Assembly (NCBI GenBank): GCA_963770895.1
Contig: CAVYRF010000002.1
Span: 4,448,001-4,512,000 of the forward strand
Length of the DNA stretch: 64,000 nt
Source: an uncultured Acidobacteriota bacterium
GTDB lineage: Bacteria; Acidobacteriota; Thermoanaerobaculia; Multivoradales; UBA5704
Direction of reading: 5' to 3'
The notes beneath the pieces were generated by a model. It worked only from the letters and a program-made list of their open reading frames with translations, did not search any database and was not told the origin of the DNA. The translations under genes and the position numbers were made by a program. Of the stretch, positions 14,956 to 26,139 are shown piece after piece. Within the stretch, counting starts at the first letter, position 1. Each line of letters begins with the position of its first letter.

Positions 14956-15351
14956 TCAGCGGGGTGGGCTGGCGAGGGTGAGGGGGGCGATGCGGGCGAG
15001 GAGATCGAAGTCGCGGTCGCGGTGAGCGATGGCGAGGCCGTTGCGGAGGGCGCAGGTGGCGATCAGACAGTCGACGCCGGAGCGGATGGTGAGGCCGGCG
15101 CGGCGGGCTTGGCGGTAGAGCTGGGCGGCTTCCAGGTAGACGTCGGTGCGCAACGGGGCCTCGACGATGGGGAAGGCGAGCAGAGCGCGGCGCGCCACAC
15201 GGTAGGGCCATTCGTCCCTGAAGCCCTGGAGGACTTCCTGCACGACGGGCAGGCAGGTCACCAGGTGATCGACATCGCCGACTGCGGCGAGGTCGAGAGG
15301 GTCCTGTTTGCGAAACACCTCGATCCAGATCGAGGTATCGACCAGGATCAA
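14956..15351 (-). CDS. vapC: PIN-domain toxin (VapC family)
   Basis: ILVDTSIWIE...QEVLQG...VDCLIA...HRDRDF acidic PIN residues. TTG start overlaps the antitoxin TGA (TTGA). Confidence 0.9.
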   Translation of the reverse strand: MILVDTSIWIEVFRKQDPLDLAAVGDVDHLVTCLPVVQEVLQGFRDEWPYRVARRALLAFPIVEAPLRTDVYLEAAQLYRQARRAGLTIRSGVDCLIATCALRNGLAIAHRDRDFDLLARIAPLTLASPPR

Positions 15352-15605
15352 CGGGCGGTCGCCTTGGCACCGCGGCGGCCGGCGCCGCTCGGGCGGTGGG
15401 TGGCGCCGGCAGCATCGCCGCGCATGGCTGCCAGGTCGCCTTCCCACAGACCGGAGCCGGCGAGCTCAAGGATCTGCCCCGCGTGGACGCGCCGCACCAG
15501 ATCCGCGAGCGCGCGATTCACGGTTGCCGAGTAGGTGCGTTCGCCGCTGAGGCGCTTGGCTTCGTCGAGCAGCTGTTCGTCTAACACAAGATTTGTGCGT
15601 TTCAT
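15348..15605 (-). CDS. vapB: VapB-family antitoxin (ribbon-helix-helix)
   Basis: MKRTNLVLDEQLLDEA...TVNRAL...WEGDLAAMR, translationally coupled to the PIN gene. Confidence 0.88.
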   Translation of the reverse strand: MKRTNLVLDEQLLDEAKRLSGERTYSATVNRALADLVRRVHAGQILELAGSGLWEGDLAAMRGDAAGATHRPSGAGRRGAKATAR

Positions 15606-15612
15606 ACACACA

Positions 15613-15640
15613 AGTCTCAACATTCTGGGCTCCTTGTCAA
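15613..15640 (-). promoter_or_regulatory. Putative sigma70 promoter of vapBC (possibly leaderless)
   Basis: Minus strand TTGACA (15640-15635), 16 nt spacer, weak -10 GAGACT, 7 nt, then ATG. No SD close to the start. Confidence 0.45.
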
Positions 15641-15834: not shown

Positions 15835-16783
15835 GGCCCGCGCCAGCCGTTTGCCGGGATGGCAAGACCCAAGGTCGCGGCCGCGAAGCGATGACGCGGC
15901 GCCACCGTGCAAGTCCACGGTTACGTCGTGCTGCGCGAGGTGTGCGGCAGGGCCGCGACGGGCTCTCCTGTTGGCCTTTGGCAAGGGCCTGCCGGCTGCC
16001 ATCGAGATCGACCCCGCCTTTCGTCGCTTCGCCGGTCATCGCGCCACCTCGACCTGGGCTGCATACAGGTCCAGCGGTCGATGCTCCACCGGCAGCTCAA
16101 GAATCAGGCCGCTGTTATGCTCGAAGGCGCCTGGGAGGCCAGGGCACCAGCCTGGCAGGGAGTGGGCAGTGGTGCATTGTGTTATCGCTGCCGCCTCATT
16201 CCTGCCTTCGCTGACGTGGGAGTCTCCAGTTTCCACCGGTCCGCCGTTGCCGGCGGTCGCGGAAAGCCACCCTGAGGCCAACGGCCGCCTGCCGCAGCCG
16301 CTGTTGCGCCGCCGACGCGGCGCTTTAGGCATGCGAGACAACTAACGGTACAGCCTGACCTCGCGCCCGCCCCACCCTCGCTGAAACACAGTAAGGTGCT
16401 TGTTTAAAAGAGTTTAGCGTTTGTGCGGACGATGAGATCAGGCGACTTCATGAGGGAGACCACCCGGCTGGGCGCTTTTGCCATTGCATCCGCACAACTA
16501 AATGTATGATGATTAGAGACGATGTTGAGCCCTTATGGAGAGCTTTCTCGCGTGTAGGGCAAGGCGACAAACCGGCCGGCGGGTCGTGGTTCGAATGCCG
16601 TGCTCGGTTGACGCTTATGCGCCATCGTTTTATTATTTGTTGTGAGCCGCTGCGGCCCGTTCCAACCCCGCCGAGGGATGAGCCGCTGGTCGCATGTCGA
16701 CGACGGCAGAGCCGTATGCGCCAAAGGAGGTCGAATATGAGGTCCATTTGTGGGTCGGTGCTTACCTCGGAGGAGGCTCTGCC

Positions 16784-17824
16784 GTGGGCAAGCTGACGCT
16801 TGCACTCAGCCTCCTGCTGGCCGGTTTCTTGCCTGCGGCCTCCTTTAATTCAGTCCCGTCGTACATGGGTGCTTCCCTGGCCTGGAACTCGACCGAGCTC
16901 AAGCAGCTCGACCAGGTGATCGCCGACAACCAGGTGATGCTCGTCGGCGAGGTCCATGGGACCCAGGAGAGCCCGCAATTCGTGTCGACAATCGTGCATC
17001 GCGCCTTGGACCAGGGGCGGAGTGTGACGGTGGCGCTCGAGATTCCGCAAGAGGAGCAATCTGTCCTGCAGCAGTGTCCAACGCACGATGGGATCGGTGG
17101 AGACCTGCGTTCCAGGCTGGCCAAACTCCCGTTTTGGAGCTCTTCGGATAGGGATGGGCGAAGCAGTGAAGCCATGCTGGGGCTCATCGACGAGTTGCAT
17201 AGATTGCACTGCGATCAACAGAAGCCTGTCGATCTGGTTGCGATCGACCCCAAGGCTGACGGCGATACCGGCTCGGCACCCTCTCCGATGGGGGCTCCGC
17301 CCCGCGACCAGGGGATGGCGGAAGCCGTGGCCAAAGCCATCCAAATCTCGCAGGGCGACCATCCCCTGCTCGTCGCGCTTACCGGCAATCTGCACCAAAA
17401 ACTCCAGCCTGGCTTCCCCTGGGACAAGCCCGATGTGCCCGCGGCCAAGTTGTACAAGCCCATGGGTTGTCGACTGATCGGAACGCTCGACGCCAACACC
17501 CATCTGGTGGCCCTTGACGTGCGCCTCTATGGCGGCGGCGACGCATGGATCTGTTCCGGTACGTCGAATTGTGGCAAGACGCCGATGCCGAAACGGCAGG
17601 GCGTGCAGCTGGCGGACGCTAAGAGCCCGAAGGTGGGCCTGACTGTCGATCAAACTGATCTGGCGGTCGATCGAGTTTGTCTGTCTGGAAACAATGCGCA
17701 GGCGACGAATCCAAAGCTATCGCAGGGCTACTACTATTTCACTATGCCGGTCAATGACTCTCCGCCAGCCAACTTGACGACCGCGCCGACGCAGGTGGCC
17801 GCTTTGTTACGTGGGGCCGGCTAG
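16784..17824 (+). CDS. Secreted protein, EreA/ChaN/TIKI-like hydrolase fold (putative)
   Basis: GTG after AGGAGG, signal peptide, VMLVGEVHGT, VALE, RDQGMA, LTGNLH motifs. Confidence 0.65.
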   Translation: MGKLTLALSLLLAGFLPAASFNSVPSYMGASLAWNSTELKQLDQVIADNQVMLVGEVHGTQESPQFVSTIVHRALDQGRSVTVALEIPQEEQSVLQQCPTHDGIGGDLRSRLAKLPFWSSSDRDGRSSEAMLGLIDELHRLHCDQQKPVDLVAIDPKADGDTGSAPSPMGAPPRDQGMAEAVAKAIQISQGDHPLLVALTGNLHQKLQPGFPWDKPDVPAAKLYKPMGCRLIGTLDANTHLVALDVRLYGGGDAWICSGTSNCGKTPMPKRQGVQLADAKSPKVGLTVDQTDLAVDRVCLSGNNAQATNPKLSQGYYYFTMPVNDSPPANLTTAPTQVAALLRGAG

Positions 17825-17938
17825 CTGCCCTCTTAGCCACATGTCAATCCGGCCTCTTCGCGGGGGTCATGTCGGATGGAGCCTTGCCGCCGCTTTGGCT
17901 CAAGGTGATGTGTATTGTCGATATGGGAGCGCAGCGCC

Positions 17939-19051
17939 ATGACGCGGATCCTGATCGCAACGTATCCAGCAGATATTCACGCGACGATAGTGGCGGATGC
18001 GGTTGCCGCTCGTGGGCACGAGGCAGTGCTGTGGCAGGGCACGGACTTCCCGACGCTCCAGCAAGCTTCGATTTCCATTGCGGATGGACAAGGCACGTTG
18101 TGGGAGATTTCTGGCCCGCGGGTGGCGGTCAGTTCGCGCGCTCCATTCGATGTGGTCTGGTGCCGCCGGCCGGTCATCGAGCCTGTGCTGCCTGAAGAGA
18201 TGCATCCGGGCGACCGAGTCGTGGCGCACCGCGAGTGCGCGAGCTTCAGCCGCAGTCTCTGGCAGCTTTTGGCGCCGGTTGCGTTCTGGGTCAATCCCCT
18301 GGGCAGCCAGCACCGCGCCAACGCCAAGCCGGTGCAGCTGCAGGAGGCGTTGGCGGTGGGTCTGCGAGTACCGCCGACCCTGTGCAGCAACGACCCGGAC
18401 AAAATCAGGCGCTTCCTGAACCGCTATGAGGGCGAAGCGATCTACAAGCCGTTCTCGCCGGCGCAATGGCTGAAGGGCGACAGCTCGGCGCTCACCTTCA
18501 CCAGCGCCGTGGCTTGCGACGACCTACCAGAAGACGAGGTGCTGCGTCTGACGCCGGGGATCTTCCAGCAGCGGATTCCCAAGGACCATGAGCTGCGGCT
18601 CACCTACATCGGCGACCGCGTCGTGGTCGCCAAGCTCATGTCGCAGGAAGTGCCCGGCGCGTGTATCGATTGGAAGCTCGCCTTTGGCAACCTCCGGGTC
18701 GAGCCGGCAGAGATTCCTGCGGCCATCGATCGGGCCTGCCGCCAGCTGCTCAAGCGCTTCAACCTTGTTTTTGCCTGCCTGGACATGATCGTCACTCCAG
18801 AAGGCGAGCATGTGTTCGTCGAGCTCAACGAGATGGGGCAGTTCCTGTGGGTGGAGGAGCTGAACCCGAACCTCCTGGTGCTGGATCCGTTCTGCGAGAT
18901 GCTGATCCAGGCTCGCTCCGACTACAGTTGGAACAGGTCTGGCGACAATCTGCTTTTCTCCGACCTGTATGAACCTGCCATTGTCAAGCAGCGGAATGTT
19001 TTGTCGCAGGTTCACGTCGCCAAGCCGAAGTACTACTCGGTACGCGATTGA
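17939..19051 (+). CDS. ATP-grasp ligase, graspetide/microviridin MvdC/D-like RiPP maturase
   Basis: DIHA, VWCRRP, FWVNP, ANAKPVQL, VPPTLCSND, IYKP, IFQQRIPKDHELR, IDW, DMIVTPEGEHVFVELNEMGQFLWVE. Confidence 0.9.
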   Translation: MTRILIATYPADIHATIVADAVAARGHEAVLWQGTDFPTLQQASISIADGQGTLWEISGPRVAVSSRAPFDVVWCRRPVIEPVLPEEMHPGDRVVAHRECASFSRSLWQLLAPVAFWVNPLGSQHRANAKPVQLQEALAVGLRVPPTLCSNDPDKIRRFLNRYEGEAIYKPFSPAQWLKGDSSALTFTSAVACDDLPEDEVLRLTPGIFQQRIPKDHELRLTYIGDRVVVAKLMSQEVPGACIDWKLAFGNLRVEPAEIPAAIDRACRQLLKRFNLVFACLDMIVTPEGEHVFVELNEMGQFLWVEELNPNLLVLDPFCEMLIQARSDYSWNRSGDNLLFSDLYEPAIVKQRNVLSQVHVAKPKYYSVRD

Positions 19052-19054
19052 GCG

Positions 19055-19100
19055 TTGTTGTACAGTCACGCATCTATTATAATTTTATCGCAAAAGGAGA
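19055..19100 (+). promoter_or_regulatory. Promoter and SD dedicated to the precursor peptide gene
   Basis: TTGTTG (19055-60), 17 nt spacer, TATAAT (19078-83), AAGGAGA SD 7 nt before ATG 19108. Confidence 0.65.
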
Positions 19101-19107
19101 CAACGTT

Positions 19108-19245
19108 ATGAAGAAGCCTCAGCCGGGCCGCATCTTGGGACGGAAGCTGGCAAAGGACCTGACCAGGGACCAGCTGGAAAGCGTGGCTGGCGGAACCATC
19201 TGCTCATGCGCCGGCGAATACGACGATAGCGATTTTTCCTACTAG
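19108..19245 (+). CDS. RiPP (graspetide-type) precursor peptide, double-glycine leader
   Basis: 45 aa, MKKPQPGRILGRKLAKDLTRDQLESVAGG|TICSCAGEYDDSDFSY. Directly after the ATP-grasp gene, strong SD. Confidence 0.85.
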   Translation: MKKPQPGRILGRKLAKDLTRDQLESVAGGTICSCAGEYDDSDFSY

Positions 19246-19342
19246 CCCACGGTATAGGTAGCGCCCCCCTGCGGCAGCGGTGTCACGGCCGGCCGCAGGG
19301 GCGACGGAAACGATATGGCTGCCAACAAAGGTGTCATCGTGC

Positions 19343-20842
19343 ATGGCTGATCCCCTGCTGACGAATGAAGCGAAGCTGGCGATACGGACCGAGGTCGAAA
19401 AGATCTTGGACCGTGAGCTGAGCAATCTGAAGCAGTCTGGCAAGATCCTTTCATGGCTTTTTGGCGTCGTGGTGGCGTTGCTGGGATGGTTAGGGTTCGC
19501 TACCTTCAGGGATCTCGCGAAGGGTGCGAAGGACATCGTTACGGTCAAGGTGACGGAGCTCATCAACAGCCAGGACTCGGAAACCGGGGTTAAGAGCAGG
19601 CTTGCCGAGTTGGTCAACCGCTCGGTCATCACAGCCCATCTGCTCGATGAGAAGAGGACCACCCAGCGAAATCTGAATCCGCATGCGGGCAGGGTGATCA
19701 CGGTGTCGTCCGCGCGGCCGCAGGCGGATCAGGATCTGGATTTGGACGATTGGAAACGATTGGGTAGATGGATCCAAGACCCAACACTCTCTGAATCCGA
19801 CTTCACCGATGCCCTCCTGCTGCTAGGGAGGCAGGGCGGCGATCGAGTCAAGCAAGATTGTCACGATTTTCTTGCCGCGATGGTCAATCCGCCAGAAAAG
19901 GGACAGTTTAGTTGGATGCGAGGGAAAGACTCCAAGCGCCGGGCCATCCTGGAGGTCTTTCGCGGTGCCGGCCTAGAGAGTGCCGCCTTGCAGATCGTGC
20001 TGAATCGACGCGAAAAGCTGGAGCTGCGCATTGCCTCACTGGGTTACCTTTCGGCAGTGAACTTCCGGCCGGCTGCGCGCGATCTGCTGCCGCTGGTGCA
20101 AGGCCAGGAAGAGCAGGCGTTGAAGGACCAGGCGCTTTACACCTGTGCGTCGCTGGATCCTCTCAGCAGCGAGATGGTGAAATTGGCACAGTCCGTCGCC
20201 AACGACGAAAAGACCGGCAAAAGCGATGCCGCAACCGACAGGGCGTTGAAGCTCGCGGCCGCTATCTGGTATGCACCGGTTACGATCGCAGCGAAGGGTG
20301 ACGACTTGCGGGCAGCGAAGCTGCAGGCGCTGATTGAAGGCGAGAAGCTGACGTTTTCGTCGCAGCTGATTGCCCCAGCACTACAGAATCAGCGCGCTTT
20401 TGTGATCAAGCTGAACGATCAGGCTGTCGGCTTCTATGTCAACGCGCTCGAGCCCTACAAATCCTTTGGCGTATCGATTGCTGACTTTCTGCAGTTCAAA
20501 CCTTACTGGGGCGTTCTTGCGCAAGTTGCCAACAAAGGCCAGCTGGCGCTGGTCGGTTGGATGGCGCCGCGCTCAGCATTGCAGGAGGGACTGTGGGCGC
20601 TGGCAGTGGCGGCGACTAGCAAAGGGAGCCTGAAGTCGGGTAAAGATTCGGTGGACGCATCCCACGCCAGCCGGATCGTGCTGGCGCGGACGGTGAACGC
20701 CGAGGCCAAGCGCAAGTGGGAGTCGTTGGAACTGCTGTGGACCGACACTGCATTGCGGGATCATGAGGGTCCACTTACGGATCTGCAAGGCACGGGGTTC
20801 GAATTCACCTTTCCTGATAGCCGAGCGAGCACGCACAACTGA
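19343..20842 (+). CDS. Hypothetical membrane-anchored protein, possible HEAT-like helical region
   Basis: Long open frame in the low-GC island, one N-terminal TM (ILSWLFGVVVALLGWLGF), LRIASLGYL...LKDQALY helical pattern. Start uncertain. Confidence 0.65.
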   Translation: MADPLLTNEAKLAIRTEVEKILDRELSNLKQSGKILSWLFGVVVALLGWLGFATFRDLAKGAKDIVTVKVTELINSQDSETGVKSRLAELVNRSVITAHLLDEKRTTQRNLNPHAGRVITVSSARPQADQDLDLDDWKRLGRWIQDPTLSESDFTDALLLLGRQGGDRVKQDCHDFLAAMVNPPEKGQFSWMRGKDSKRRAILEVFRGAGLESAALQIVLNRREKLELRIASLGYLSAVNFRPAARDLLPLVQGQEEQALKDQALYTCASLDPLSSEMVKLAQSVANDEKTGKSDAATDRALKLAAAIWYAPVTIAAKGDDLRAAKLQALIEGEKLTFSSQLIAPALQNQRAFVIKLNDQAVGFYVNALEPYKSFGVSIADFLQFKPYWGVLAQVANKGQLALVGWMAPRSALQEGLWALAVAATSKGSLKSGKDSVDASHASRIVLARTVNAEAKRKWESLELLWTDTALRDHEGPLTDLQGTGFEFTFPDSRASTHN

Positions 20843-21232: not shown

Positions 21233-24200
21233 CTAGCGGTGGCTGGCGGCGAGGGTGGCGGCGCGGGTGGCGAGGGCGGTGTAGCCGTGGGTGGTGGCGT
21301 CTTGCTGGACCGCGGCGGCGGCTTGGTGGACGTAGGGTTGGGGATGGTCGTTGCGGCTGCGCTCGGCGAGAGCCAGGGCGGATTCCAGGTGGAGCTCCAG
21401 GAGACCCCCGCGGTCGGCTTCGGTCTGGACCTGGTGGAGGGCGGTCAGAGCTTGGGCTTGGCTGGCGGGCGGCAGCAGGGTGGCGGCGCGCAGCTGGACG
21501 GTGAGGCGGATGCGCTGGTCCTGCACGGCGATGGGCTGCGGTGCCGGCGCGGCGGGGGCGGCGGCGATGGTTGCGGCGGTTGCTGATGCGGGGGCCGCGG
21601 TGGTGGCCGTCGCGGGGGTGGCGGGGGCCGGTGGTGGGGCGGCTGGGGGTGGTTGCAGCAGGGCGGTGGCGCGGCCGATGTCGGCGGCGGCGCGGTGGGG
21701 GTCGCCGGCGGCGGTGGCGGCGAGGGCGGCCAGGGAGAGGGCTTGGGACTGCTCGGCGTTGGCTCCCTGGTGCGCCAGGTCGTCGGCCAGGGCCTCGGCT
21801 TGATTGGCGATGGTGGCGAAGGTGGCGGTGGCCGGCGCCTGGGCGGCTGGCGCGCCGGCGCCGGCGGGTGCGGCGGCGGGGGGGCCTGGCGGCTGCGCGG
21901 CGCGGGCGGCGGCAAAGGCCAGCTCGGCCAGGGCCAGGCGGCTTTCGGCGACGGTGCCTTTTTCGCCCAGGGCGGTGCGCAGGTCGAGGGCGGACTGGTG
22001 GTCGCGGCGGGCGTCGTCCCAGCGGGCCTGGCGGGCGGAGATTTCGGCCAGGCCGTAGAGGGCGGCGGCGGTGGCGGTCTGGCTGGCGATGGCGCGGCTG
22101 GCGGTCAGGGCCTGCTGGAAGTCGCGGCCGGCGGCGTCCAGGTCGCCCTGGTCGAAATGGATGCTGCCGAGGTGGTTGAGGGAGGCGGCTTCGCCGGTCT
22201 TCTGGCCGGTGCGGCGGCGGATGGCGAGCGCCTCCTGGCAGCGGGCCAGGGCGGCCGGCAGATCGCCGCGGCGCCGCAGGGCGACGCCCAGGTTGTCCAG
22301 GGCGTAGGCTTCGCCGGCGCCGTCTCCCAGGGAGCGCCAGAGGGCCAGGGACTGCTGGTAGAGGGCGGCGGCGGCTTCGAGGTCGCCGCGGCGCAGCAGG
22401 ACGCCGGCCAGGTTGTTCTGGCTGTTGGCTTCGGCGCGGCGGCTGCCGAGCTCGCGGGCGATGACCAGGACCTGCTCGAAGAGCTGGCGCGCGCGGTCGA
22501 GGTCGCCCTGGCTGCGCAGGACGACGGCGATGTTGTTGAGCGCGCCGGCTTCGGCGCCGCGGCGGCCGATCTCGCGGTCGGTGGCGAGGGCCTGCTGGTA
22601 GAGCGCCAGGGCAGCCGGCAGGTCGCCGCGGTCGAAATGGACGTTGGCGGCGCCGGTCAAGGCTTCGGCGACGCCGGCGCGGTCGCCTGCCGCGGCGTCC
22701 AGGCGGCGGCCTTCGGCGCAGGCTGCCAGGGCTTCGTCGGCGCGGCCCAGGCTGCGCAGTGCCAGGCAGTCGAGCAGGCGGGCCTGTGCCACCAGGAGGG
22801 TCGCTCCCAGCGCCGCGGCGCGGCGGGCGGCATTGGCGGCGGCGGCGTGCTGGCGCGCGAAGTCCGAGTGGGCGCCGGCGGCGGTGGCCTCCGCCAGGTC
22901 GATGCGCGGGTCGTCGCGCATCGGCGCCGGCAGGGTGCGCAGGGTGCCGGTGGTCAAGAGCGCCGCCTGCGGCTGGCCGGCGGCGGTCTGGGCACCGGCC
23001 AGGCGCAGGCCGTAGTCGAGGTTGTCGGGGGTGAGCGACAGCAGGCGTCGGTAGATGTCCACCGCGGTGCCCAGCTCGCCGGTCGCCTCGCGGTAGCGGC
23101 CTTCGATCACCAGCCGGTCTTCCGCGGGCAGGCCGCTCGACAGCTCGAAGGCGGTCTTGGCTTCGGCGACGGCCTTGTCGTCGAAACCGAGCGTCGCCCA
23201 GGCGGCGGCCAGGCCGGAGTGGGCCAGGGCGCTGGCCGGGTCGGCCGCCACCGCCTGCACCAGCAGGTCGCGCGCCCCGACGGGATCGAAGAGACGCAGC
23301 TTCTGCATGCCTTCGGCGTACAGGCGCGCCGCTTCGGGGTTGGCGACCGCCGCGGCGTGGACGGGCGCGGCGGCGCCTGCCGCGTGCAGCTGGTCGCGCA
23401 GGCGGTCGCCGGCGTGGCTGACCAACTTGAGCAGGTCCGCCTGCGGGCCGGTTTCGGCGAAGGTGGCGGTTTCGCCGGTCAGGGCATCCTGCATCCGCAC
23501 GTCGAGGCGCACCTGCGCGGCGCTGCCGGCGCCCACCACCAGGTAGGAGCCGAGCACCACCGCGTCGCTGCCCAGGAGCGTCCGGATGCGCCCCAGGGTG
23601 TCGCGCGCCAGGCTGTCGGGCTGGCCCAGCTGCAGCTCCAGCTTGGCCCTCGCGACCTCCTCGCCGCCGATGACGCGCAGGCCGCCGCCCGCGCCCAGCT
23701 CGGTGGTCAGCATCTCGGCGAAGGCGGGCGACAGCCAGGCGGTTCCCGCGGCCCCCGACAGGTCGCGGAAGCCCAGCACCGCGACCGACCGGCGCGGCGT
23801 CACCTCGCCGCCGGGGGCGATCCCGGCTTCGGCGGCCGCCTTCGCCCGCCGCCAGGTGGTATAGCGGTACCAACCCACCGCCAGCGCCACCAGCACCAGC
23901 GCCGCCAGGGCGGCAAGCCGCCGCCCGCTGCGCCGCCGCTCCGCCGCCGCCGCGCCGCCGGCGGCGCTCGCCACCGCGGCGCCATCGGCCACGCTCGGCG
24001 GCACCGCGGCGTCGCCCACGTTTGCCGCCGCCGTCGCCGCGGCCGCCATCGCCGGCACCGCCGGATCGGCCCACGTGACCGCGCTTGTCCCTGTCGCCGC
24101 AGTGACCGCCGTAGCTCCCGCAGCCCCCGTATTCCCCATCCCCATGGATGCCGCCGTTGCCGCGGCTCCACCCGGTAGCGACGGGCTGCTCCCCGCCGGG

Positions 24201-25405
24201 CCGGGCGCCGGCGCCACGCCCGCCGCAGGGAGAGCCGCGGCCGCGCCGGCTTCGGGCGCGGTGAGCGCCGCGAGCACGTCGAGGGCGCTGGCGAAGCGGT
24301 CGGCCGGGTCGCGTGCCAGGCACCGCAGGATGGCGGCCTCCCAGCGCGGATCGAGATGCGGCGCATGCACCCGCGGCGACACCGGCAGCTCCTTGAGGCG
24401 CTTGACCGCGGTGGCCAGGACCGAGTCGCCGACGAAGGGCACGGTGCCGGTCGCCATCTCGTAGAGCACGATGCCGAGCGCGTAGACGTCGACGGCGGTG
24501 GTGATCTCCCCGCCTTCGACCTGCTCCGGCGCCAGGTAGGCGGGGGTGCCGACTAGGCCGCCGGCCACCGTGAGGGTAGGTGCCGCCGGGTCGTTGCCGC
24601 CGTCCAGACGCGCCAGGCCGAAGTCGGTGACGACCGCGCGCCAGCCGCCGCGGCCGGGGACCAGCACGATGTTGCCCGGCTTGAGGTCGCGGTGGATGAC
24701 GCCGACCTGGTGGGCGGCGTCCAGGCCGAGGCAGATCTGGCGGGCGATGGCCAGCACTTCGCCGGCCGGCAGCGGCCCGTCGCCGCGCAGGCGCGTCGCC
24801 AGCGTCTCGCCGACCAGCAGCTCCATGGTCAGGAAGATGACCGCCGGCCCGCCGCCGCCGGCGGGGCGGTGGTAGTAGACGTCGAAGATGCGGCAGACGT
24901 TGGGGTGGGTGACCTTGCGCGCCAGCTGGATCTCGCGCCGGAAGCGCTCGACCGCCATCGAGTCGGCCGCCGCTTCTGGGCGCACCGTCTTGAGCGCCAC
25001 GGCTTCGCGCAGCTCCAGGTCTTCGACCTCGTAGACCTCGCCCATGCCGCCCTGCGCCAGGAAGCGCACCACCCGGTAGCGCGCGGCGACCAGCTCGCCG
25101 GCCGCGAAGACCGGCGGCCGCGCCGCGGTGACGCCCACCGGCGACGCGGTGGGGGTGCCGATCAGCGGCGCCGTCTCACCTGCCGCGGACGAGCCGCCGG
25201 CCGCCGGCGCCCCGGCCGCCCCCGCCGCGCCGGCCGCCGGGGAAGAGCTGATCGGCGCCACACCCGGCCGCCGCACCCCGAACTGGGTCCTGCAGGCGGC
25301 GCACTGCACGCGCACCCGCGCCGGCCCGTCCAGCGGCAGCTCGAAGCGCAGGCGCTCGCCGCAACCGGGGCAGGTGACGGTGAACCGCGAAGACGATGCG
25401 CTCAT
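21233..25405 (-). CDS. Ser/Thr protein kinase with N-terminal Zn-ribbon, TM helix and C-terminal TPR array
   Basis: CPGC...CAAC, LAQGGMGEVY, VALK, HRDLKPGN, DFG, GTPAYLAPE, TM, repeated ALNNIA/SQNNLA/ALDNLG TPRs. ATG 25405. Confidence 0.93.
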   Translation of the reverse strand: MSASSSRFTVTCPGCGERLRFELPLDGPARVRVQCAACRTQFGVRRPGVAPISSSPAAGAAGAAGAPAAGGSSAAGETAPLIGTPTASPVGVTAARPPVFAAGELVAARYRVVRFLAQGGMGEVYEVEDLELREAVALKTVRPEAAADSMAVERFRREIQLARKVTHPNVCRIFDVYYHRPAGGGGPAVIFLTMELLVGETLATRLRGDGPLPAGEVLAIARQICLGLDAAHQVGVIHRDLKPGNIVLVPGRGGWRAVVTDFGLARLDGGNDPAAPTLTVAGGLVGTPAYLAPEQVEGGEITTAVDVYALGIVLYEMATGTVPFVGDSVLATAVKRLKELPVSPRVHAPHLDPRWEAAILRCLARDPADRFASALDVLAALTAPEAGAAAALPAAGVAPAPGPAGSSPSLPGGAAATAASMGMGNTGAAGATAVTAATGTSAVTWADPAVPAMAAAATAAANVGDAAVPPSVADGAAVASAAGGAAAAERRRSGRRLAALAALVLVALAVGWYRYTTWRRAKAAAEAGIAPGGEVTPRRSVAVLGFRDLSGAAGTAWLSPAFAEMLTTELGAGGGLRVIGGEEVARAKLELQLGQPDSLARDTLGRIRTLLGSDAVVLGSYLVVGAGSAAQVRLDVRMQDALTGETATFAETGPQADLLKLVSHAGDRLRDQLHAAGAAAPVHAAAVANPEAARLYAEGMQKLRLFDPVGARDLLVQAVAADPASALAHSGLAAAWATLGFDDKAVAEAKTAFELSSGLPAEDRLVIEGRYREATGELGTAVDIYRRLLSLTPDNLDYGLRLAGAQTAAGQPQAALLTTGTLRTLPAPMRDDPRIDLAEATAAGAHSDFARQHAAAANAARRAAALGATLLVAQARLLDCLALRSLGRADEALAACAEGRRLDAAAGDRAGVAEALTGAANVHFDRGDLPAALALYQQALATDREIGRRGAEAGALNNIAVVLRSQGDLDRARQLFEQVLVIARELGSRRAEANSQNNLAGVLLRRGDLEAAAALYQQSLALWRSLGDGAGEAYALDNLGVALRRRGDLPAALARCQEALAIRRRTGQKTGEAASLNHLGSIHFDQGDLDAAGRDFQQALTASRAIASQTATAAALYGLAEISARQARWDDARRDHQSALDLRTALGEKGTVAESRLALAELAFAAARAAQPPGPPAAAPAGAGAPAAQAPATATFATIANQAEALADDLAHQGANAEQSQALSLAALAATAAGDPHRAAADIGRATALLQPPPAAPPPAPATPATATTAAPASATAATIAAAPAAPAPQPIAVQDQRIRLTVQLRAATLLPPASQAQALTALHQVQTEADRGGLLELHLESALALAERSRNDHPQPYVHQAAAAVQQDATTHGYTALATRAATLAASHR

Positions 25406-25416
25406 CGGCGCCTCGC

Positions 25417-26139
25417 TCAGCCGTAGTGCGAGCCGGGATAGAGAAGGTTGATGGCGAGCAGCTGGACGGGGCGGTAGATGGGGCCGAACAGCTGCCAGGC
25501 CACCACCAGGCCGAGCAGCGACATGTAGGGCTGCGCCTGGAGCGCCGCGTAGCGTTCGGCGCCCCGCGGGCTGAGCAGCGCCGGCACGACGGCGCTGCCG
25601 TCCAGCGGCGGCAGCGGCAGGAGGTTGAAGATGCACAGCAGCAGGTTGAGGGAGAAGACCAGCGACAGCGGCACCACGGCGCCGCCTGCCAGCCCGGCGC
25701 CGCCCGTGGCGCTCTCCGTGACCTGGGTGAAGGAGACGCGTTCCGGCGACGTGAAGAGGCCGCCGGCGACGCCGAGGCGGATCGCCGCCCCCGCCAGCAG
25801 CACCAGCGACAGGTTGGCCGCCGGTCCCGCCAGCGCCATCACCGCCGCCCGGCGCGGATAGCGGCGCGCCCACAGCGGGTCGAACGGCGCGCTGGCCCAG
25901 CCCATCATCCAGCCCTGGGCGAAGAAGGTGACGAGCGGCACGACGATCATGCCCACCGGTTCGCGCCGGATGTGCGGCAGCGGGTTGAGGGTGACCTGGC
26001 CGCCGTGATACGCCGTGGCGTCGCCCAGCCGGTAGGCGGCGAAGGCGTGCGCGGCTTCGTGCAGGGTGGTGGAGAACAGGAAGACCAGAAACCAGGTGAA
26101 CCCCAACGCCAGCGTGTGAATCGTCAGCGGGGACTCCAC
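25417..26139 (-). CDS. Site-2 protease family (M50) membrane metalloprotease
   Basis: HEAAH, TLNPLPH, AGPAAN, FNLLPLPPLDG. Confidence 0.93.
   Translation of the reverse strand: MESPLTIHTLALGFTWFLVFLFSTTLHEAAHAFAAYRLGDATAYHGGQVTLNPLPHIRREPVGMIVVPLVTFFAQGWMMGWASAPFDPLWARRYPRRAAVMALAGPAANLSLVLLAGAAIRLGVAGGLFTSPERVSFTQVTESATGGAGLAGGAVVPLSLVFSLNLLLCIFNLLPLPPLDGSAVVPALLSPRGAERYAALQAQPYMSLLGLVVAWQLFGPIYRPVQLLAINLLYPGSHYG

Follow-up and report, generated by a model that had tools for sequence, protein, structure and literature searches.

A Group 8-type graspetide cassette of an uncultured acidobacterium with cysteines at predicted ring-donor positions of its precursor

Does a graspetide ligase acting on its own natural precursor ever close rings through cysteine? 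The question is raised by a 64,000-nucleotide window of the genome of an uncultured soil bacterium of the Acidobacteriota (assembly GCA_963770895.1, contig CAVYRF010000002.1, positions 4,448,001 to 4,512,000), in which the gene of an ATP-grasp ligase is followed on the same strand, after a gap of 56 nucleotides, by a small open reading frame (ORF) for the 45-residue precursor of a RiPP (a peptide made on the ribosome and modified after its translation). A first-pass annotation had described this pair of ORFs as a graspetide locus with possible thioesters, and our analysis confirmed both ORFs (Table 1) and, through matches to maturase families and to MdnC and through a conserved leader, supported the graspetide assignment. 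As had been claimed, the core, i.e. the 16 C-terminal residues of the precursor, possesses Thr1, Cys3, Ser4, Cys5, Glu8, Asp10, Asp11 and Asp13 and no Lys. The supposition that this core falls outside the known groups was not supported, its leader and scaffold matching those of the catalogued graspetide Group 8. Class and group thus appear to be known, while the cysteines at conserved, presumed donor positions and the accessory genes appear to be new.

Judged from its sequence, the ligase is an MvdD/MdnC-type ATP-grasp RiPP maturase. It matched the NCBIfam maturase models TIGR04187 (E 4e-55), TIGR04184 (E 7.3e-50) and TIGR04185 (E 1.5e-47), passed the MvdD pre-ATP-grasp Pfam model PF21068, and aligned over its whole length with MdnC (5ig9, E 4.6e-43), the Glu-x-Asn (ELN) metal-site stretch included. 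The ATP-grasp and pre-ATP-grasp parts of MdnC, the MdnB-like protein 7m4s, CdnC (7mgv) and PsnB (7drm) are homologous to those of the ligase (E 4.6e-43 to 2.4e-15). It differs from the microviridin MvdC/MvdD equivalogs in scoring under the curated cut-offs (187.2 bits against 350 for TIGR04187, 169.9 against 475 for TIGR04184 and 162.2 against 425 for TIGR04185). Microviridins combine a core motif and a Lys amide link with two ligases, whereas the window locus lacks both features and has one ligase; the acyl-phosphate mechanism is the same in microviridin ligases (PMC13097080; here and below, statements on the literature refer to the available part of each source). Neither the microviridin motif TxKYPSD nor the plesiocin motif TTxxxxEE occurs in the 45-residue precursor, in agreement with the first-pass annotation. 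The ligase form starting at ATG 17939 is covered by relatives over 100% of its length in the alignment, and scoring of 8000 candidates returned 327 relatives at E <= 1e-3, the top non-self matches being 71% identical. In a sample of the phylum the lineage was present in 4 of 401 genomes at E <= 1e-60, own genome counted, and no close relative was gained. The same genome holds five further ligase matches. Two of them, at the loci L055 (G000 C1:379534-380773) and L056 (G000 C2:201248-204478), belong to the lineage with 53% and 47% identity, and each has a leader-bearing precursor whose core is unrelated to that of the 19108..19245 precursor: one ends in NIDDVIS, and the other contains WTYTLLYPSDPGG, which resembles rows that Carter et al. 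2026 list as Group 8 (supplement of PMC13097080).

Loci with related ligases were taken from species genomes (53), from metagenomes (the best 80 of 97) and from the bacterium's own genome. A leader profile built from 18 leaders beside related ligases, which match it by construction, detected 113 small ORFs with 102 distinct C-terminal tails at E <= 1e-3 and was present in 92 of 139 ligase-bearing loci. The window precursor matched the profile at 1.2e-06, and ligase and precursor are arranged in the same way in all six of the closest loci. When the precursor was searched against a large protein collection it matched only itself; the recurrence of the leader profile beside related ligases indicates that the ORF is not a product of chance. 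Membership of Group 8 brings together a common leader (Arg-Ile-Leu-Gly-Arg ... Gly-Gly), a ligase lineage and a 13-residue scaffold with presumed donors at positions 1, 3 and 5 and Asp at 10, 11 and 13. The numbering of the group reportedly goes back to Lee 2020 and Ramesh 2021. Supplement file 2 of PMC13097080 (Carter et al. 2026) lists precursors with this leader as Group 8, among them two that are identical to those of L002, and close relatives of L011. Because precursors with the same leader and scaffold are so listed, the core would not be an orphan, and leader and 13-residue scaffold together are best assigned to catalogued Group 8. As a proxy for clustering with Group 8 ligases, the ligase is 48-72% identical to ligases with Group 8-listed or very close precursors and sits inside the tree of ligases with Group 8-type precursors; the Gly-Gly-type shared leader end is present in its precursor. 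The window's own strings TICSC, YDDSD and YDDVD were not among the matches listed in supplement file 2 of PMC13097080. Cores of the type Thr-x-Ser-Cys ... Asp-Asp-Cys also stand in that supplement behind unrelated leaders (rows 19744 and 20269, one of Group 41 and one from an ungrouped Flavobacteriales entry); the scaffold may accordingly have more than one origin or have been spread.

Gra-7A/B of Legionella pneumophila (Ayikpoe et al. 2022, PMC9576775), likewise Group 8 with a Gly-Gly leader end, were the only Group 8 products with data found in the literature searched. Co-expression with one ligase resulted in three water losses, and the GG-specific protease LahT150 placed those of precursor A in the core (PMC9576775). 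Of the Gra-7 precursors, the supplement lists one, whose core is longer than the window core and unrelated to it. No connectivity was obtained by tandem mass spectrometry, and the available part of PMC9576775 does not raise the question of Cys. No solved ring connectivity for the 13-residue scaffold was found in the graspetide literature searched. Conserved Cys was noted in many predicted precursors by Makarova et al. 2022 (PMC8939145), who guessed at radical SAM thioethers.

Alignment of the cores revealed where the window precursor departs from its relatives. Among 116 distinct tails we found 48 13-mers ending in Asp-Asp-x-x, of which 21 rows (18 distinct), starting 0-4 residues past a Gly-Gly-type site, were retained by eye; the 27 dropped rows lay inside leaders or in cores of other loop length. 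At positions 10 and 11, Asp was imposed by the search pattern. Across the 18 distinct cores, position 1 is Thr (14), Ser (2), Ile or His (1 each), and position 13 is Asp in 16, with one Ala and one Gly. Position 3 is Ser in 15 cores and Thr in two, and position 5 is Ser in 15 and Thr in one. Cys3 occurs in the window core alone and Cys5 in the window core and one other of the 18, that of L001/L067. Position 4 is Cys in 13 cores (His, Ala, Ile, Ser and Asn once each) and position 12 is Cys in 15 (Gly, Ser and Val once each). The canonical core accordingly has Thr1, Ser3, Cys4, Ser5, a four-residue loop and Asp-Asp-Cys-Asp. The window core keeps the canonical length, Thr1 and Asp10, Asp11 and Asp13; at positions 3, 4, 5 and 12 it has Cys-Ser-Cys and Ser versus the Ser-Cys-Ser and Cys of the canonical core, whose Cys4/Cys12 pair is absent here. 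A shift of register that would place Ser4 at a donor position was rejected, no relative supporting it. Separately, an aromatic end (Tyr or Phe) lies 3-7 residues past Asp13 in the window core (19234-19242) and in L001, L060, L062, L064, L050, L065, L068 and L011.

A sequencing artefact at the Cys codons is unlikely, since the two TGC codons are separate and a short contig of the soil-metagenome run X2, assembled separately, matches 19166-19339 with 0 differences. This agreement is weak independent support, as the sampling campaign may be shared; contigs from three sequencing runs partially cover the stretch. Regarding expression, the first-pass annotation had given the precursor its own promoter and Shine-Dalgarno sequence. 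The latter (AAGGAG) is present. The promoter was not confirmed, since the consensus promoter scan made no call on the + strand within the 56-nucleotide gap, and the TATAAT hexamer found there by eye is paired with a poor -35 element (Table 1).

Three covariations among the cores bear on ring connectivity. Only L051 and L120 lack a hydroxyl at position 1, and only these two lack Asp13. Cys4 is always accompanied by Cys12, both being present in 13 cores, Cys12 alone in two and neither in three. L061 (4106-4318), which has one extra loop residue, combines Cys5 with a Cys that replaces the first Asp of the acid cluster, and this Cys/Cys combination looks like a disulfide in place of the 5-10 link. 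These covariations fit links 1-13 and 5-10 and a 4-12 disulfide, leaving 3-11 by elimination, and we infer a ring-within-ring hairpin of 1-13, 3-11 and 5-10. The nested crosslinks of the first-pass annotation are therefore consistent with the covariations, at the level of a predicted topology. The core of L060, a close relative, has no Cys, and ahead of its Asp cluster Ser1, Ser3 and Ser5 are the sole hydroxyl donors of the Ser/Thr kind. Asp10, Asp11 and Asp13 are retained in the window core and in L001/L067 across about 30% ligase divergence. The predicted nested pattern resembles the hairpin of plesiocin (PMC13097080), which differs in possessing TTxxxxEE and repeats; the window core lacks the motif and would form three rings around a four-residue loop, with Asp acceptors only and in a single copy.

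On this basis a route can be proposed. The ligase would bind the conserved leader and, with ATP, convert the carboxylates on the side chains of Asp10, Asp11 and Asp13 of the core to acyl phosphates; phosphorylation of the carboxylate is the described step of graspetide ligases (Carter et al. 2026, PMC13097080). Closure of three rings would follow, through the side chains of core residues 5, 3 and 1, the likely pairs being 1-13, 3-11 and 5-10; the product to be expected would have a single Thr1-Asp13 ester plus one or two thioesters (thiolactones) between Cys and Asp. The reading we prefer, which we place close to, though short of, an even call, is that Asp13, Asp11 and Asp10 are linked by the ligase to positions 1, 3 and 5 respectively, with one ester and up to two thioesters as the result. 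Acylation of Cys5, and probably of Cys3, is the most economical interpretation, since positions 3 and 5 hold nucleophiles only, the Asp residues are retained and acceptance of Cys by such ligases has been reported (PMC12291112, PMC13097080). In PMC12291112, ester-forming graspetide ligases are stated to convert substituted donors to thioesters 'efficiently', and thioester-linked ThfA was obtained; in engineered pre-fuscimiditide (ThfA/ThfB), the ligase closes a thioester between Cys at a donor position and a carboxylate. That Cys was designed, whereas those of the window core are natural and stand at positions conserved as Ser/Thr. The possible thioesters of the first-pass annotation thus gain from the placement of Cys where relatives have Ser/Thr and from the ligase precedent, the chemistry itself being a prediction. 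The engineered thioester-linked pre-fuscimiditide is said to be the work of Choi, Acuna and Link 2024. No native thioester graspetide was found in the graspetide literature searched, in which thioesters are described only as engineered products, or as non-native ones (PMC13097080).

A maximum-likelihood tree of the ligases (30 rows, 28 different; rows of >= 340 bits and >= 300 aligned residues) was rooted at the midpoint for drawing only and does not itself establish the order of events. Seven rows of this tree form a 100/99 clade: L064, whose core is canonical, plus six that group in an inner clade of their own (again 100/99), namely the ligases of the window, L060 (Ser1/3/5, Cys absent), L061, L062 (core canonical) and L001/L067. 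Outside the clade, too, there are canonical Ser-bearing cores (L050, L065, L068, L002, L010 and L011). Since canonical cores stand both inside and outside the clade, the Cys-bearing cores would be derived, which suggests that it was within the clade that the 4/12 pair was lost and Cys5, and in the window core also Cys3, was gained. Cys5 recurs in three lineages. Ser/Cys swaps at one core position were also seen in other core types of the leader family, between the precursors of the sister ligases L005 (5115-5318) and L069 (1384-1596) and between the twin precursors of L034 (5383-5556 and 5658-5828). Adaptation of the ligase to Cys was considered and rejected, since column 61 alone tracks the cores, and weakly: residue 61 (about 18119-18121) is Arg in all four rows with Cys5 peptides, two of them near-identical, and in none of the nine rows with Ser/Thr-5 peptides, a small and related sample.

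Several observations weigh against cysteine acylation. Apart from column 61, no ligase feature clearly follows the Cys-bearing cores. The donor positions are deduced from conservation only. The class definition admits Ser, Thr and Lys as donors and Asp and Glu as acceptors (PMC13097080). Cys occurs within the last 22 residues of 80 of the 102 distinct precursor tails, where most of it would be more simply read as disulfides, and L075 and L119 keep Cys12 without Cys4, indicating that conserved Cys can have other roles here. Thioesters are sensitive to attack by thiols, amines and water. Ser4 of the window core offers a possible alternative donor. These points feed the strongest rival, to which we assign a substantial but clearly less than even probability: a functional Group 8 cassette in which Cys is never acylated, the product having a Thr1 ester only, perhaps with a second ester at Ser4, and Cys3 and Cys5 being free, metal-bound, joined in a strained Cys-x-Cys disulfide or engaged in an intermolecular disulfide after export. 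The published restriction of donors to Ser, Thr and Lys (PMC13097080) favours it, as do the disulfide-like joint occurrence of Cys4 and Cys12 in 13 of 18 cores, the pairing of Cys5 of L061 with a second Cys in place of Asp, the uniqueness of Ser4 to the window core, the lability of thioesters and the conserved lone Cys known in cores of the family. Under it, however, two of the three conserved Asp would be unpaired in spite of their retention in the window core and in L001/L067; the single Cys of L001/L067 makes an intramolecular disulfide impossible there; and in 18 of 18 cores nothing but a nucleophilic residue is found at position 3 or 5.

The ligase and precursor genes are part of a four-gene cassette, whose order is conserved in L060, L001, L067 and L062 and partly in L061 and L064. 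The first gene encodes a 376-residue protein, syntenic in L060, L001, L067 and L062 and partly in L064, which scored 28.1 bits against the Pfam model PF04187 (cut-off 27.7) and has eight relatives at E <= 1e-3, self counted. Its AlphaFold model (predicted local distance difference test score, pLDDT, 82) was matched by Foldseek to Bacillus BcR135 (2rad_B, E 8.9e-6) and EreC (6xcq, E 1.4e-5) with TM 0.57-0.58 and, more weakly, to the RRSP endopeptidase and ChaN (2g5g, E 1.6e-3). Its invariant residues, including G85, E86, H88, G89, T90, E92, E116, R204, D205, N232 and H234, fit the superfamily motif, Gly-Glu-x-His-Gly plus later Glu/Arg/His. Enzymes of the erythromycin-esterase/Tiki-type fold hydrolyse macrolactones or else peptide bonds, which makes the protein a candidate for removing the leader or for opening rings. 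The last gene, syntenic in L060, L062, L061, L001 and L067, encodes a 499-residue protein for which Pfam and NCBIfam searches gave no family. It belongs to a family without a name (86 representatives; HEAT_2 matches in 3 of 47 members), and its model (pLDDT 85.8) combines long helices at the N-terminus with a solenoid of armadillo/HEAT type and a beta domain. Foldseek returned nothing for this model at E <= 1e-3, the best armadillo-repeat match being weak (E 5.1e-3), and an Atlas look-up with a 520-residue protein gave sub-threshold HEAT leads only (0.80). Sequence searches of the PDB matched neither accessory protein.

Table 1. Positions in the window of the cassette genes, the parts of the precursor gene and the putative expression signals
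Feature	Position	Strand	Description
Low-GC (guanine plus cytosine) island holding the four-gene cassette	16000..20800	.	GC 0.56-0.64 vs 0.70-0.79 on both sides
Promoter-like site TTGACG-17-TATTAT	16608..16636	+	10/12 consensus positions; upstream of first cassette gene
Erythromycin-esterase/ChaN/Tiki-fold protein	16694..17824	+	376 residues; hydrophobic N-terminal segment
ATP-grasp graspetide ligase	17939..19051	+	370 residues; ATG 17939, stop 19049-19051; intact
TATAAT hexamer	19078..19083	+	Found by eye; perfect -10, weak -35 TTGTTG (3/6) 17 nucleotides upstream
Shine-Dalgarno AAGGAG	19094..19099	+	8 nucleotides upstream of precursor ATG
Precursor gene	19108..19245	+	45 residues, MKKPQPGRILGRKLAKDLTRDQLESVAGGTICSCAGEYDDSDFSY; stop 19243-19245; leader 1-29 ending Gly-Gly, core 30-45
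Core-coding stretch	19195..19242	+	16 codons; Cys codons TGC 19201-19203 and 19207-19209
Membrane-anchored armadillo/HEAT-like repeat protein with C-terminal beta domain	19343..20842	+	499 residues; ATG 19343, frame opens at GTG 19280

Group 8 is frequently accompanied by an NHLM-type transporter (Carter et al. 2026, PMC13097080), in place of which the window has the esterase/Tiki-fold and armadillo-like membrane proteins. No match to a C39 peptidase was found in the window or in the flanks of the six closest loci, and nine were found elsewhere in the genome. The leader would be cut at Gly-Gly either by such a C39-type transporter, encoded elsewhere, or by the esterase/Tiki-fold hydrolase of the cassette. 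This hydrolase also enters a second rival, in which thioesters form only transiently and are resolved by acyl shift (to the Ser4/Ser12 hydroxyl or an amine), by hydrolysis or by the esterase-fold protein itself, the mature product being free of thioester. An S-N acyl shift turning thioester to amide has been used on an engineered graspetide (PMC12291112), Ser4 and Ser12 of the window core occupy the canonical Cys positions, and the erythromycin-esterase-fold gene is strictly syntenic in the closest loci. L001/L067, however, have Asn and Val instead of Ser at positions 4 and 12, and the hydrolase fold also suits a plain leader peptidase; we consider this rival improbable. In the two loci most similar to that of the window, the cassette is followed by an S9 prolyl-oligopeptidase-type gene (L001 6986-9109, L067 5893-7110) that the window lacks.

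That the cassette is decaying or silent, the Ser-to-Cys changes being neutral drift in a peptide no longer made, is very improbable: the foreign GC of the island and the adjoining toxin-antitoxin pair speak for it, and no RNA was found among the sequencing runs listed, but all four genes are intact, the precursor has lost neither its ribosome-binding site nor its leader, its Gly-Gly site or any of the three Asp, the gene order holds in L060, L001, L067, L062 and partly L061 and L064, and Cys5 is found in three lineages. The site at 16608-16636, a consensus match only, is the sole promoter-like call on the + strand in the cassette. Among the genes beyond the cassette, which vary by locus, are those for VapBC here, for a CcdA antitoxin in L062, for a helix-turn-helix protein in L060 and, in L001/L067, for a lipocalin and an S9 peptidase. 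The VapC (PIN)/VapB toxin-antitoxin pair of the window (14956-15623, - strand) lies directly to the left of the low-GC cassette. VapBC here and CcdA beside the same cassette in L062 hint that the cassette travels with mobile DNA, i.e. that this four-gene Group 8 graspetide cassette is horizontally mobile. On its other side a Ser/Thr protein kinase of about 1545 residues with many TPR repeats (21233-25873, - strand), lying in high-GC DNA, is probably unrelated to it.

Returning to cysteine acylation, its fullest version would make the product the first natively thioester-linked graspetide, a hairpin of three rings closed by an ester (Thr1-Asp13) and two thiolactones (Cys3-Asp11 and Cys5-Asp10). 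L001/L067 would then represent one-thioester evolutionary intermediates and L061 a replacement of a ring by a disulfide, and the esterase-fold protein would act on the (thio)lactone rings, for immunity or activation, rather than as a plain leader peptidase. Taken with all these parts, this version is clearly less likely than not.

Graspetide ligases are under development as peptide-cyclisation catalysts, and the making of thioesters has so far been reported for engineered substrates only. Around the window locus, the relatives provide a comparison series with Ser at both positions (L060, L062), one Cys (L001/L067) and Cys-Cys (L061), and the covariations supply a ring map of the main Group 8 scaffold, the first that can be tested. 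Two uncharacterised accessory proteins come with the conserved cassette, at a time when partner-dependent graspetide biosynthesis has only recently been described. A natural precursor with Cys at conserved, presumed donor positions asks whether nature already uses thioester chemistry.

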